DNA of 64,000 nucleotides from Candidatus Poribacteria bacterium (lineage in GTDB: Bacteria; Poribacteria; WGA-4E; WGA-3G): the NCBI GenBank assembly GCA_965197475.1, contig CBDANF010000003.1, positions 4,032,001 through 4,096,000 of the forward strand. The letters are read 5' to 3'. Below the pieces are notes generated by a model. That model was not told the origin of the DNA and searched no databases. It worked only from the letters and a program-made list of their open reading frames with translations. This document shows, in pieces, positions 46,095 to 49,960 of the stretch (positions within the stretch are counted from its first letter, which is position 1; each line of letters starts with the position of its first letter). Made by a program: the position numbers and the translations under genes.

Positions 46095-46122
46095 GATGTG
46101 AAAAGAAATTAGGAGAAACTTG

Positions 46123-47490
46123 ATGGCTGTTGAACTGAGAATGCTCCAGATGGACCAGACAATGACAAAAGGGAAAATCGGCAAATGGCTTGTTAAGGAA
46201 GGCGATACCGTGACACAAGGGCAACCCCTTCTGGAAATTGAAACGGATAAAGTTGTCCATGAACAGGAATCTCCTACTGACGGTGTCATCGCACAAATTC
46301 TCCCAGAAGAAGGTAGTAATGTCCCTGTTAATGCGCTTTTAGCGATTATCGCGGCCCCGGGGGAAGAAGTTGAACGCGTTAAAGCAGATACCACAGCAGA
46401 ACCACAGGAGTCTGATAAACCAGAGCAGCGTGCCCCGACACCTGCTACACCAACGAAAATAGAGTCTCAACAGACTACACAAACGACGGAACACATTAAA
46501 GCATCCCCTGCAGCACAACAACTCGCTGAAAAACTCGCTATTGACTTAACGCAAGTAAAAGCGTCTGGTCCTGGAGGTCGTATCCTTGAAAGTGATGTCC
46601 ATCGCTACATTGAAACGAGAGAGCCGACTCCGACTGAATCAACGCGTCTCAAAGCCTCGCCGCTCGCTCGCCGATTAGCAAAAGAATTTGGGATCGATAT
46701 TACATCTATTGCCGGTTCCGGTCCTGATGGCAGAATTGTCCGAGATGACGTGTTGCAAGCCACCGATGAGATACCCGCTCAGGCATTTCGTACTGAACCC
46801 GCTGCTTCAGAAGTTATTGAGCTTAGCGGCATCCGTAAAATCATCGCCGAACGTATGACGATGAGCGTTCAAACGAACGCAAGTGTCACACTTCATACAG
46901 AAGTTGACGCTACAACCCTTGTAGAATTACGCGAACTCTTCAACGAAGAATTACAGAAAAGAGAGGTGAGCCTCACCTACACCGATCTAATTGTGAAAAT
47001 TATTGCTAATGCATTGCGAGAACATCCACGCCTCAACGCGACACTCACAGATGACGGAATTCGCCTATTAGCGGATATCAATATTGGGGTTGCAGTCGCA
47101 TTAGAAGATGGACTCGTCGTGCCGGTCATCCGCAATGTTGATAAAATAGGTTTAGCCGCTATCTCTGAGCAGATAAAAAACTTGGCAGAAAAAGCGCGCG
47201 GTAATCAACTTACCCCCGGAGAACTTCAAGGCGGCACCTTTACCTTGACAAACCTCGGCAATTTTGGAGTCGATGCATTCACACCTATCATCAATCCGCC
47301 TGAATGTGCTATCCTTGGAGTAGGGCGGATTCTCAAGAAACCGGTTGTCTATAACGATGAGATCGCTATTCGGCACATGCTAACCTTAAGTTTGACGTTT
47401 GATCACCGTGTTGTGGACGGTGCTCCTGCTGCACAGTTCTTGCAAACAGTGTCTCAATATATTCAGAACCCGTATCTATTGCTTGTATAA
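46123..47490 (+). CDS. 2-oxo-acid dehydrogenase E2 (dihydrolipoamide acyltransferase)
   Basis: Lipoyl site EIETDKV, two E3-binding domains (KASP...GRI), catalytic DHRVVDG. Confidence 0.92.
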   Translation: MAVELRMLQMDQTMTKGKIGKWLVKEGDTVTQGQPLLEIETDKVVHEQESPTDGVIAQILPEEGSNVPVNALLAIIAAPGEEVERVKADTTAEPQESDKPEQRAPTPATPTKIESQQTTQTTEHIKASPAAQQLAEKLAIDLTQVKASGPGGRILESDVHRYIETREPTPTESTRLKASPLARRLAKEFGIDITSIAGSGPDGRIVRDDVLQATDEIPAQAFRTEPAASEVIELSGIRKIIAERMTMSVQTNASVTLHTEVDATTLVELRELFNEELQKREVSLTYTDLIVKIIANALREHPRLNATLTDDGIRLLADINIGVAVALEDGLVVPVIRNVDKIGLAAISEQIKNLAEKARGNQLTPGELQGGTFTLTNLGNFGVDAFTPIINPPECAILGVGRILKKPVVYNDEIAIRHMLTLSLTFDHRVVDGAPAAQFLQTVSQYIQNPYLLLV

Positions 47491-47500
47491 GGAAATGCAA

Positions 47501-48127
47501 ATGAAAAAATGGATATGTTTACTTCTCATGCTATTGCTGTTTACAGTTGGGTATGCCCAAGAAACAGATTTTGATATCCTGCTTGCCTCTGATGTCAATG
47601 CAGATGGAATAGTGAATATCCGTGATTTGGTATTTGTTGCCTTGCACTTTGGTGAAACACCTTCTGAAGATCAGTATCCCAACCCCGATGTAAACGGGGA
47701 CAGTGCTGTCAACATTGATGACCTTACATTGGTCGCGAGCCACTTTGGTAAGTATTCTGGCATTCCACTTGAATTAACCGATCAGACGTTTGACAACATA
47801 GTGCGTGGCGCAAAACTGCCTATCTTAGTCGAATTTAAGTCCGATTACTGAATCTACTGTTTATTGATGAGACCAGTTGTGTCTGAAATTACCTTAGAAT
47901 ATCGTAACGTTTTCGTCGTAGCAAAATTAGACGTGAACGACAATCCAGTAACAACAGCAGAATATCATATACGAGGAACACCGATTTACCTCCTATTCTA
48001 TGAAGGAAACGTCATAAAAGTAATCGTCGGTGCTATGTCGAAAGAGAGATTGGTAAATCGGATTCTTGAAGGGTTAAGTACGGTGGTAGAACCACCACTC
48101 ACACAAGAGCAGGCAGACAGCGAATAA
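47501..48127 (+). CDS. Secreted dockerin-like plus thioredoxin fusion; putative selenoprotein with in-frame TGA at 47849-47851 (UxxC)
   Basis: Signal peptide, two DVN(A/G)D-like repeats, then LPILVEFKSDY-TGA-IYC-LLMRP...KLDVNDNP...IRGTP. The two track ORFs are in the same frame and the TGA sits at the first Cys of the Trx CxxC. Confidence 0.8.
47870..47884 (+). promoter_or_regulatory. Candidate bacterial SECIS hairpin
   Basis: AGAC-CAGTTGT-GTCT begins 18 nt after the TGA and has GU in the apical loop. Confidence 0.5.
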
Positions 48128-49960
48128 CGCTGTCCATTGCCACACTTCCTGCGAAATAGGCTGTAGTAAATCTTTTTCGTTTACTTGTGTTTGTGTGTTT
48201 AAGTCTGTTTTGGAGGATAAAAGCGCAGATTCCGTTGCATCAAGTAAATTAACGGCGAATCGTCCAAATAGGGAATCTCCTGCAAAGACAGAATAAATAC
48301 CCATTTGGTCTGTTTCGGCAAACACCGAATTCTTAAGTTCAAGCATATTCCCATCAGGTTTTTGCACCCTAATAGTAGATTTCTCCTGCATCGGCAAATC
48401 AATTTTTACATGTTCTCCGGTTCGGAATGTGGGCGTTGTGCTGTTTCTTTGAGCAGTAATAGCCTTGATCGGTACAGCATTAGATTCAAGCCAAGCTAAG
48501 CAGTGATACATAAACAGCGGGGCATCCGGAATAGTAGTGGGGAAAGAAGAAATTTCTGGATTAAACGCATCGAATTCAAATACCAGAAATTGTCTGTCCG
48601 CCTTAGTGCCAAACCATACCAACGTGCCTTTCTCTGTTTCAATAAGCGAATTTCCCCAGAGAGGCAATTCTCTACGCACAGATTCCTTTACTTGTAATCC
48701 CATAATAGATACGTCCCGCATAATCGGATGCGTTTTGTTTTCTTTGATAACGGAAACAAGGGTTGGGACGATTTCAACAGAAGGTTCTGTCATGAAAGGT
48801 AATTCTTGTTGCCAATTAATAAAGATTATGCTCTCTGTGCCGGGAATGTTCAAAAAGTCGTGTGTCGGAAGGATTCCGCCATCAAAAATTATGACATCTG
48901 CATCACTCGTGCCGTGGTATTCATCTGTGGATACTGTCTGTAGTTCAACATAGTCCCCGGAACTCCTCAAAAGTTCCGTCAACAAAGATTGATTCCTATC
49001 GCTAACGAGCAGGATTCGGAGTTGCCGTTTCGCGTTGAGAATTGCCCAAACCTCGTTGTCCAATTCAAAGTCGTCAGCCACATCAACAAGATGGAGACGA
49101 ATCGCAACACCTTCCAGCCTTTCCGCATTGATAGAAAACGGAACAGATTTTACCTCGCCAGCGGGAAGTGTCAAGGTTTTTTCAGCAATTGCTGTTCCAC
49201 CTTCAAGTCCTAACTGGATATCTATTTCCCTTTCTGTATCTGTCCAATTCTGAATACCTGCGAGAACCTTATATTCGTCAGCAATTCTTTCCACACTGAA
49301 TTGCACAATACCTATGTTTTCTGCTGCCCCTCTGACTGAGATTTTGTTGATGGGCACAGATGTAGTCGGCAATTTTTCAAACGAATCGCTAATAAAAAAG
49401 ATTTGATCCTGCGGTGAATCCGCATAGCGCGTCGCATAATCAAAAACTGATGTAAACCCGCCGACTGCGTGTGTTGGCACAATATTTTCCACAGCACGGC
49501 GCAGTTTATCTTTATCTGTCGTAAATGCTTGTTGAATATAAGGCTTGGGGGCATGCGTTGCCATAATCATCATGCCCCCACTGGCAGAAACCTGATTAAT
49601 GTGTTTCAGTACTTCCTGTTTAGCAAGTGCAAGTCGGGTTTCTCCCAGCTCTTTCGACTGCATACTTGCCGAATTGTCAACGATAAAGATTATTTTGCCG
49701 TGAATTATGCCGGGAATTCGCAACGCAGGACGCGCAACGCTAACGATTATAACGAGTAAGAACAGACTTTGTAAAATGAGGAGTAGCAGATTCCGCAGGC
49801 GTTGAAAAGGGATATTCGCTTTCTGGTCCTCAGCATTGGCAAGCCAGAGCATCATACTCGGCACAACGTAACGTTGTCGGCGCAGCCTTAGAAAATGCAG
49901 CGCAATCACGATAGGAATAGTTCCAATCAGGTAGAACGCAGCCGGGTTCAGAAAAGCCAT
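48074..49960 (-). CDS. BatA N-terminal plus VWA domain protein
   Basis: MAFLNP...LHFLR...PSMMLW, MIDAS motif DNSASM, ISD, C-terminal LLLCEWW. Confidence 0.85.
   Translation of the reverse strand: MAFLNPAAFYLIGTIPIVIALHFLRLRRQRYVVPSMMLWLANAEDQKANIPFQRLRNLLLLILQSLFLLVIIVSVARPALRIPGIIHGKIIFIVDNSASMQSKELGETRLALAKQEVLKHINQVSASGGMMIMATHAPKPYIQQAFTTDKDKLRRAVENIVPTHAVGGFTSVFDYATRYADSPQDQIFFISDSFEKLPTTSVPINKISVRGAAENIGIVQFSVERIADEYKVLAGIQNWTDTEREIDIQLGLEGGTAIAEKTLTLPAGEVKSVPFSINAERLEGVAIRLHLVDVADDFELDNEVWAILNAKRQLRILLVSDRNQSLLTELLRSSGDYVELQTVSTDEYHGTSDADVIIFDGGILPTHDFLNIPGTESIIFINWQQELPFMTEPSVEIVPTLVSVIKENKTHPIMRDVSIMGLQVKESVRRELPLWGNSLIETEKGTLVWFGTKADRQFLVFEFDAFNPEISSFPTTIPDAPLFMYHCLAWLESNAVPIKAITAQRNSTTPTFRTGEHVKIDLPMQEKSTIRVQKPDGNMLELKNSVFAETDQMGIYSVFAGDSLFGRFAVNLLDATESALLSSKTDLNTQTQVNEKDLLQPISQEVWQWTALFAVCLLLCEWWFYHRT

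Follow-up and report, generated by a model that had tools for sequence, protein, structure and literature searches.

A stretch of 64,000 nucleotides from a Candidatus Poribacteria bacterium (contig CBDANF010000003.1; called the window in the following) contains at positions 47501-48127 a reading frame that encodes a dockerin followed by a thioredoxin domain, and this frame is interrupted by an in-frame TGA inside the thioredoxin domain. The question raised by this locus is whether the TGA terminates the synthesis of a short dockerin protein or is read through and, in the latter case, which amino acid is inserted. We conclude that 47501-48127 is very probably one gene with a genuine UGA read-through, most likely encoding a selenocysteine-containing protein. 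That the UGA at 47849-47851 is not a terminator at this site is strongly supported, as the codons beyond it are kept open, are under purifying selection, and complete a thioredoxin fold. The locus is made up of the following features:

46120..47490, + strand: gene of a 2-oxoacid dehydrogenase E2 acyltransferase (Pfam), directly upstream
47490..47493, + strand: Shine-Dalgarno-like AGGA, 7 nt 5' of the ATG and 0-3 nt past the TAA of the E2 gene
47501..48127, + strand: whole coding sequence of the probable dockerin-thioredoxin selenoprotein, 208 codons including Sec, then TAA
47501..47557, + strand: N-terminal leader MKKWICLLLMLLLFTVGYA, a putative signal peptide cleaved before QE, recognized by inspection
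47588..47740, + strand: dockerin type I with two Ca-binding repeats (DVNADGIVNIRD and DVNGDSAVNIDD), Pfam PF00404
47768..48064, + strand: thioredoxin domain (Pfam, AlphaFold, Foldseek)
47849..47851, + strand: in-frame TGA, the U of U-I-Y-C, read as the Sec codon on the basis of the TGA/Cys column of the orthologs, the PDB alignment, and contigs
47858..47860, + strand: TGT, resolving Cys of UxxC (C122, invariant in 20 of 20 sequences)
47981..47983, + strand: CCG, cis-Pro codon of HIRGTP, aligned with IRGIP of Escherichia coli thioredoxin (P163, invariant)
48125..48127, + strand: terminal stop codon TAA, read from the sequence

On the + strand, positions 47501-48127 form one frame whose sole interruption is the TGA, and the list of open reading frames accordingly contains two same-frame ORFs, 47399..47851 and 47864..48127. 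The likely start codon is ATG 47501; the orthologs begin with MKKW, and an alternative in-frame ATG at 47495 is located merely 1 nt downstream of the AGGA. Database entries of 116 amino acids correspond exactly to the segment from 47501 to the TGA. Residues are numbered as in the protein model, which was made from ATG 47495 and comprises 210 residues with the TGA read as U; for the start at 47501, 2 has to be subtracted.

The leader, as judged by eye, consists of KK, 14 hydrophobic residues, and G-Y-A followed by Q-E; it is conserved in the orthologs and was modeled by AlphaFold as a low-confidence helix. Residues 32-82 matched Dockerin_1 (PF00404) with 33.1 bits at a cut-off of 22.9. The two dockerin repeats, each D-x-N-x-D-G-x(5)-D, are conserved in the ortholog alignment, and residues D33, G38, D44, D65, D69, and D76 are invariant across 27 sequences. 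The match to Thioredoxin (PF00085; residues 92-190, 66 bits at a cut-off of 23.5, E 3.4e-18) spans the TGA, around which the read-through product reads LPILVEFKSDY-U-IYC-LLMRP...HIRGTP. When searched with phmmer against the PDB, residues 92-187 aligned with E. coli thioredoxin (E 8e-20), where the TGA residue coincides with the first active-site Cys, C122 with the second one, and RGTP with RGIP of the cis-Pro loop. An AlphaFold model based on 20 sequences (mean pLDDT 80.0, pTM 0.67) showed the strand and helix order of thioredoxin, the TGA residue 119 directly preceding helix 120-135, and the best Foldseek matches in the PDB were thioredoxins (TM ~0.8, target-normalized; ~40% identity). The scores against the NCBIfam TrxA equivalogs NF006898 and TIGR01068 were 74.3 bits (cut-off 138) and 60.7 bits (cut-off 96.8), respectively. 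As these cut-offs were not reached and the motif is Y-U-I-Y-C rather than WCGPC, the protein is, judged by its sequence, a member of the thioredoxin family but not a TrxA ortholog; the NCBIfam search returned no dedicated model for the dockerin-thioredoxin family. These results agree with an earlier note made from the letters of this DNA, which had described two same-frame ORFs split only by a TGA, the location of this TGA at the nucleophilic Cys position of a thioredoxin fold, and a cis-Pro motif downstream of it.

To collect orthologous loci, 176 genomes from the phylum were searched in all six frames; orthologue-level matches occurred only in the taxonomic family of the window. Among the 106 matches with E <= 1e-56, 94 contained a TGA by hand count. 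We examined 90 of the loci (30 plus 60 fetched) and left out 16 further rows, each of which was listed with '1 TGA'. The catalytic codon was TGA in 78 of the 90 loci and TGT or TGC in the other 12, so that the column holds either TGA or Cys, the pattern that the earlier note had named as a check of its proposal. The TGA orthologs belong to two genera, share 55-84% protein identity, and show neither a second stop codon nor a frameshift, and in all 78 of them 78-91 codons are open past the TGA. Purifying selection was assessed by the method of Nei and Gojobori for the 75 codons after and the 60 codons before the TGA; the median dN/dS was 0.16 past the TGA (2136 pairs with usable dS; maximum, 0.65) and 0.12 upstream of it (1457 pairs). 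For many distant pairs dS was near saturation (median, 1.38), and close pairs are therefore more reliable; the window and its three nearest relatives gave values of 0.11-0.21 past the TGA. Two kinds of search rows were considered as further recoding events and rejected. Rows with '2 TGA' do not represent UxxU, since in these the gene itself ends with the second TGA (6 of the 90 orthologs end in TGA), and the TAG in rows with '1 TAG' is the terminal stop of C-terminal WCPFC thioredoxin domains.

A protein search revealed how such genes are represented in public databases. Among the 120 clusters listed, 19 comprised ~170-223 amino acids with both domains and 101 comprised 115-134 amino acids with the dockerin only, so that gene callers do truncate the gene, which the earlier note had expected them to split in two. 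Some of the short clusters are labeled 'dockerin type I domain-containing protein [Candidatus Poribacteria bacterium]', and seven short homologs in the alignment end exactly one residue ahead of the Cys column, where the full-length homologs carry C-I-Y-C, C-F-Y-C, C-G-F-C, and similar motifs. In a quick maximum-likelihood tree of the 90 orthologs and two Cys outgroup proteins, at least five Sec/Cys changes were required; Cys is found in the outgroups, in a basal genus, and in four groups that lie within the Sec forms. All genomes with a Cys form possess selB, showing that the switches do not result from loss of the pathway. The terminal branch of the window copy has a length of 0.17, compared with a median of 0.077.

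The genome encodes the complete machinery for selenocysteine insertion, as the earlier note would require. A tRNA-Sec was found with 75.1 bits (cut-off, 47) and the anticodon tca according to ARAGORN; it is adjoined by selB (349.8 bits), and selA (610.8 bits) and a Sec-type selD (370.4 bits) are also present, the latter with one TGA of its own at the expected position KCAG-U-ASK. The matches of tRNA-Sec, SelA, SelB, and SelD were all above the curated cut-offs. Within the family, a selB match above the cut-off was obtained for 108 of 112 genomes, including all 88 of high quality; the four genomes without a selB match are 81-83% complete. TGA is an ordinary stop codon in this genome: of 2402 open frames with 300 or more codons, 555 terminate with it, and it is thus not reassigned genome-wide.

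A SECIS element would be expected directly downstream of the UGA, and the following candidate was considered:

47853..47898, + strand: candidate SECIS, formed by a lower interrupted helix (47853-47865 / 47887-47898) and an apical hairpin (47870-47884)

The earlier note had reported a short hairpin starting 18 nt after the TGA. This hairpin, AGACC-AGUU-G(U)GUCU, is present as described, with the stem 47870-47874 / 47879,47881-47884, the loop AGUU at 47875-47878, a bulged U, and a model spacing of 23 nt from the UGA, but it is weak, no better than shuffled sequences, and among the weakest of the family. The 19-nt hairpin had a folding energy of -2.8 kcal/mol, and 41 of 200 shuffles folded as well; for the 46 nt including the lower helix the energy was -4.1 kcal/mol, and 146 of 200 shuffles were as good. 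The z-score of the 62-nt fold was +1.09. Across the genome, 175 TGA sites combine a Cys at -3 or +3 with a minimum of 60 open codons upstream and 40 downstream, and by fold energy the dockerin-thioredoxin site ranked 155th among them. The bare TGA/Cys pattern together with the hairpin in the window is no more than expected by chance; the site is raised above chance by the homology that extends over the TGA and by the comparison with relatives rather than by the hairpin.

The orthologs gave a different picture when they were compared with the bSECIS model, which asks for a loop of 3-9 nt, a G among its first two nucleotides and then G or U, a distance of 16-37 nt from the UGA, and a minimum free energy <= -7.5 kcal/mol (PMC13188914, Fig. 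2 legend); a subset of bacterial SECIS elements lies outside this model according to the same source (PMC13188914). At <= -7.5 kcal/mol, the model fitted 72 of the 78 TGA forms (median, -12.1) and 5 of the 12 Cys forms (median, -5.4). When the codon order of the Sec forms was shuffled, 36 of 156 sequences fitted (median, -2.05). The window belongs to the six TGA forms with a fold weaker than the energy threshold of the model (L021, L024, L025, L031, L040, and L099): its loop AGUU and the spacing of 23 nt conform to the model, and its energy of -4.1 kcal/mol does not. With respect to the conserved hairpin and the SECIS model, to which the earlier note had referred, the proposal is thus supported by the family, as nearly all TGA forms and only a minority of the Cys forms fit, and not by the window's own hairpin. 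Two observations on other selenoprotein genes soften the latter result. The hairpin of the genome's own selD, with the loop GGGUG 16 nt past the UGA, has an energy of only -6.7 kcal/mol, and in a Sec paralogue from another genus the apical C-AGUU-G recurs, there with GGCG/CGCC as its stem.

The 70 nt from the TGA onward align without gaps across the orthologs, and pairing was counted over 73 distinct sequences. For the upper helix (columns 20-26/30-36, with the GGU loop in columns 27-29) 80.2% of the cells were paired, compared to 35-60% when the partner was slid by 1-3 columns, and for the lower interrupted helix (columns 5-17/39-50) the value was 82.6%, compared to at most 55% when slid. Pair 23:33 occurred as GC (27), AU (12), GU (3), and CG (2), pair 22:34 as AU (29), CG (16), and GU (2), and the pairing score of the upper helix was reached by none of 500 shuffles. 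The stem-loops fall into at least three registers: GAGACC-GGU-GGUCUC and variants of it with the loop GGU (41 of 78), the type found in the window, AGACC-AGUU-G(U)GUCU with the loop AGUU (9 of 78), and CUGU-GGUC-ACAG or a neighboring register with the loops GGUC/GUCA, which occurs in one subclade (18 of 78). These registers turn on an invariant GUGGU/GUUGU rather than on one conserved helix, which explains why RNAalifold gave no consensus structure for all 78 post-UGA stretches. G28-U29 was present in 78 of 78 Sec forms and in none of the 12 Cys forms; these two bases begin the first Val codon of P-V-V, in place of which the Cys forms have Ile or Thr codons.

The weight of these counts is limited by relatedness, the covariation being phylogenetically shallow. 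Independent-pair covariation tests on the tree were underpowered, with at most three supported contrasts (p = 1), and pair 16:40 of the lower helix was unsupported, 7.7 of 8 contrasts being without a change on the other side. The association of Sec with G28-U29 had the same direction in 3 of 3 contrasts (p = 0.25). A search of positions 47400-48300 against Rfam in evalue mode yielded no family and only a chance match to a snoRNA (E 7.9).

If the TGA were a true stop codon, the product would be a leader-dockerin protein of 116 amino acids, and the downstream part would be untranslated or made as a separate fragment from TTG/ATG 47864/47867. Public annotation reads the gene in this way, as seen in the 101 of 120 listed clusters that contain the dockerin only; the weak hairpin of the window fits with it, and so does the generally low efficiency of Sec insertion. 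Termination only nevertheless appears improbable, given that the next 78-91 codons are open in each of the 78 TGA forms with a dN/dS of 0.16. Moreover, a separate downstream fragment would lack both the leader and the nucleophile, and the upstream product would end one residue ahead of the catalytic residue, leaving a dockerin with one third of a thioredoxin fold, for which we know of no precedent as a functional unit. Since Met125 does not vary in the Cys forms either, it is a residue of the fold and not a start signal. Partial termination is a different matter: since Sec insertion is generally inefficient, a certain amount of terminated product is likely even if the gene encodes a selenoprotein, and in view of the weak stem-loop a considerable fraction of the ribosomes may terminate at the UGA and yield the 116-residue dockerin-only product. 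Somewhat less probable still than termination only is a read-through with an ordinary amino acid (Trp, Cys, or another one) inserted by near-cognate suppression or through a local recoding signal. The inserted residue is not distinguishable by sequence analysis, and the stem-loop in the window is weaker than the SECIS energy threshold, both of which leave room for this explanation; it conflicts with the complete Sec pathway of the genome, with the occurrence of selB throughout nearly the whole family, with the function of TGA as an ordinary stop elsewhere in the genome, and with the fact that the UGA is at the redox-active column and alternates there only with Cys codons, the classical Sec/Cys signature. 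In addition, UxxC thioredoxins are an established selenoprotein family (PMC13188914, PMC1088965).

In a single sequence, an in-frame stop codon within a conserved domain looks like a nonsense mutation, and the long terminal branch of the window copy might likewise be taken as a sign of a thioredoxin gene that was recently inactivated. We regard a pseudogene as very unlikely, since the same TGA is shared by 78 of 90 loci in two genera at 55-84% identity without further stops or frameshifts, the dN/dS past the TGA is low in the family (0.16) and also between the window and its nearest relatives (0.11-0.21), and the divergence of the orthologs excludes that they are assembly copies of one sequence. 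A sequencing or assembly error that turned TGC or TGT into TGA, for which we found no supporting point, has a negligible probability. A contig from a second sample (run X3) covered 47817-48112 at a depth of 119 with zero differences, and a contig of a diverged relative (run X5) covering 47753-47915 had 15 differences, none of them at the TGA. No alternative letter was present at 47849-47851 in the four runs compared, and the TGA occurs in 78 independent genomes. Run X1 was identical throughout but was left uncounted, as it may be the source of the window itself; runs X5-X10 had small shares only. Independent runs thus show TGA and not TGC or TGT, the outcome on which the earlier note had made its proposal depend, and its central claim, a selenoprotein with Sec in the UxxC active site of a thioredoxin, is supported by the machinery, the TGA/Cys column, the selection past the TGA, and the stem-loops of the family.

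For the favored selenocysteine read-through, we propose the following mechanism. SelB with Sec-tRNA(Sec) would bind the mRNA stem-loop ~23 nt downstream of the UGA, whose apical loop carries G-U (AGUU here and GGU in most relatives), and Sec would be inserted at the UGA to give the active site U-I-Y-C. The leader would send the protein across the cytoplasmic membrane, and the two-repeat dockerin may then fasten it to a cohesin-bearing protein of the same genome, where the thioredoxin module could serve as an extracytoplasmic thiol-disulfide oxidoreductase. In this function Sec would attack the substrate disulfide and Cys122 would resolve the selenenylsulfide. By general selenoprotein chemistry, Sec would provide, in an oxidizing compartment, a more reactive nucleophile that is harder to over-oxidize irreversibly.

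Export and cohesin docking are predicted from the sequence with a confidence clearly lower than that for the read-through. A leader alone carries a protein only to the periplasm of a diderm cell. The genome has 20 cohesin matches above the cut-off and 66 further dockerin matches, and one of its frames combines three cohesins with a dockerin of its own. Other dockerin cargo includes a family-5 solute-binding protein, WD40 propellers, a Cu-monooxygenase-like protein, and an LDL-receptor-repeat/cohesin protein. A complex prediction for the first cohesin of the three-cohesin protein, two Ca, and the dockerin gave a score of 0.15 (mark, 0.32) without controls and is no evidence either way. No NCBIfam sorting domain was found on the fragment of the three-cohesin protein, the C-terminus of which is cut off in the examined locus; a putative T9SS-like motif 'NYPNPFNP' was noticed by eye in this fragment. 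The genome also encodes one DsbD-type membrane electron carrier, which nothing ties to the dockerin-thioredoxin.

All 30 loci of the genus have the E2 gene as the immediate upstream neighbor in the same orientation, with a gap of 9-16 nt in 28 of them and of 10 nt in the window. Because no promoter-like or terminator-like site was found between the E2 gene and the selenoprotein gene of the window and the arrangement is kept in all 30 loci, the two genes are likely co-transcribed, as judged from their arrangement. A functional link to the E2 protein is not evident, since the compartments differ. A 221-nt contig of an RNA run (X4) was identical to 47454-47674 only and stops short of the TGA; it does not show transcription of the whole gene.

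Dozens of related Poribacteria-like species have retained this TGA. The genome abounds in cohesins and dockerins, and the Sec active site belongs to a protein with a leader and a dockerin tag, which suggests that its cohesin-dockerin assemblies carry redox chemistry besides hydrolases or binding proteins. A further-reaching idea, which we put forward as speculative and rather unlikely to hold in all its parts, is that a selenocysteine redox module is plugged by its dockerin into an extracytoplasmic cohesin scaffold as part of a wider exported selenoproteome, with a SECIS whose register shifts about an invariant GU(G/U)GU; protein (Pro-Val-Val) and RNA would then be co-constrained only while the codon is UGA. 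If true, the protein would be the first selenoenzyme component of a cellulosome-like assembly. Other candidates for exported selenoproteins in the lineage are a second dockerin-Sec-thioredoxin paralogue, Sec-type HMA lipoprotein candidates, and a Sec-type Prx-like protein; an AhpC/TSA-type (Prx-like) candidate with a leader and T-U-TVC is encoded in the same genome. For annotation, the results imply that at least about a hundred clusters of 116-134 amino acids named "dockerin type I domain-containing protein" or "hypothetical" represent the N-terminal half of a selenoprotein, and Sec-aware gene calling in Poribacteria can be tested cleanly on this family. With 78 Sec and 12 Cys forms and at least five switches in one small tree, it also offers a view of the gain, re-registering, and loss of a SECIS within a coding sequence and of what Sec buys over Cys in an oxidizing compartment.

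Sec-thioredoxins with UxxC are already known, and what sets the present protein apart is the architecture with leader and dockerin. The known Sec-thioredoxins resemble the protein described here in belonging to PF00085, in having Sec as the first residue of a CxxC-type motif with Cys homologs alongside, and in a SECIS directly downstream in the coding region. Their dipeptide is G-P, whereas it is I-Y here and P-F, I-F, V-F, or others in the relatives. The characterized Sec-thioredoxin is cytosolic. According to a 2026 review (PMC13188914, citing Kim et al. 2015), Sec-containing thioredoxin (Trx, PF00085, UxxC) is an experimentally characterized prokaryotic selenoprotein, and 11 Sec-thioredoxin sequences were counted in the Sargasso Sea set (PMC1088965). 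In the available parts of these sources they are described as plain thioredoxins, whereas in our case a leader and a dockerin precede the domain. E. coli thioredoxin 1 (TrxA; PDB 2trx, 1txx) has the same fold (TM 0.8) with ~40% identity over ~96 residues, and its columns Cys32, Cys35, and cis-Pro76 all align with the dockerin-thioredoxin. Unlike TrxA, the latter has no WCGPC, carries Sec in place of Cys32, is fused to a dockerin and putatively exported, and does not reach the equivalog cut-off.

Exported thioredoxin-fold UxxC selenoproteins (DsbA-like, DsbG-like, thiol-disulfide isomerase-like, and Prx-like) have been predicted since 2005 (PMC1088965, Table 3; PMC13188914). They share with our candidate the thioredoxin-fold UxxC and a presumed action outside the cytoplasm and differ in subfamily, and in the available text of the two papers none is described with a dockerin (PMC1088965, PMC13188914). 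The words 'secreted' and 'periplasm' do not occur in the text of PMC13188914, so localization is not treated there. In the one paper collection covered, the combination of leader, dockerin, and Sec-thioredoxin was not found in print: the titles and abstract beginnings on Poribacteria and selenocysteine apparently contained nothing on this gene, dockerin together with selenoprotein retrieved unrelated papers only, and nothing relevant appeared for dockerin/cohesin in Poribacteria, dockerin/thioredoxin in sponge symbionts, or exported bacterial selenoproteins.

Compared with the consensus bSECIS model, the window agrees in loop and spacing and deviates in energy, and 72 of the 78 orthologs agree in every respect; the family uses at least three registers, compared to the one conserved helix of the model. 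The protein resembles the components of cellulosome-type cohesin-dockerin assemblies in its type I dockerin with two Ca-binding repeats, and the genome has multi-cohesin proteins as such assemblies do. Unlike in the cellulosome, the cargo of this presumed docking is a redox protein and not a glycoside hydrolase.

The gene for the putatively exported dockerin-thioredoxin (window 47501-48127, + strand) is directly preceded on the same strand by a gene for a 2-oxoacid dehydrogenase E2 component (lipoyl acyltransferase; window 46120-47490, + strand). Because the E2 gene adjoins it upstream on the same strand in all 30 loci of the genus (L021-L050), 28 of which have 9-16 nt between the two genes, the gene of a cytoplasmic dithiol enzyme is tightly coupled to that of a putatively exported thioredoxin. 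At the other end, the convergent BatA/VWA gene (48074..49960, - strand) has an ORF that overlaps the 3' end of the thioredoxin gene by 54 nt (48074-48127). The C-terminal tail encoded there, EPPLTQEQ(A/T)D(S/G)E (window 48086-48124), hardly varies within the genus, whether the form has Sec or Cys, and could be a motif for sorting or for binding; orthologs of the neighbouring genus carry ...GILGIEETE in its place.

A genome of the neighbouring genus encodes a further Sec paralogue, 705 aa long (L134:1140-3257, - strand), located directly upstream of the ortholog of the dockerin-thioredoxin gene in the same genome (L134:496-1104). It consists of a leader, a dockerin, five or six repeat modules of ~80 aa, and a C-terminal thioredoxin domain with DG-U-PFC. 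Many more long frames of this kind, with one TGA each, were found in the neighbouring genus by a six-frame search of the phylum genomes.

The genome to which the window belongs (G000) contains the following further candidate selenoprotein genes.

G000:C3 about 1876420-1877335 (L137:121-522 and 653-1036), - strand: a tandem pair of small HMA proteins, each with an in-frame TGA
G000:C3 about 1881609-1882289 (L138:310-990), + strand: AhpC/TSA (Prx-like) protein, Pfam 103.5 bits
G000:C3:3099237-3100163 (L133:239-1366): selD, with one TGA at ...KCAG-U-ASK

Both tandem proteins combine a lipoprotein-like leader with an HMA (heavy-metal-associated) domain, which scored 29.5 and 36.4 bits against Pfam HMA when the TGA was read through. 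The TGA takes the position of the first Cys of GMxCxxC (GMV-U-GAC and GMT-U-GAC), and the two are candidate exported metal-binding selenoproteins. The AhpC/TSA protein has a hydrophobic leader and a T-U-TVC motif encoded through TGA, and probably belongs to the known Prx-like thiol:disulfide oxidoreductase type of selenoproteins. SelD, too, is a selenoprotein, and a hairpin with a GGGUG loop lies 16 nt downstream of its TGA. Identical QCG*YLC frames at 14 places in this genome (e.g., C2:349901 and C3:773605) reflect a repeated element with at least 14 near-identical copies, in all likelihood an insertion sequence or another kind of repeat and not a selenoprotein.

The same genome has a large cohesin-dockerin repertoire (e.g., at G000:C3:52200-54400, L131), with 20 cohesin matches and 66 dockerin matches besides that of the thioredoxin; one protein combines three cohesins with a dockerin. 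The dockerin cargo includes a solute-binding protein, WD40 propellers, and a Cu-monooxygenase-like domain, and differs from cellulosomal enzymes.
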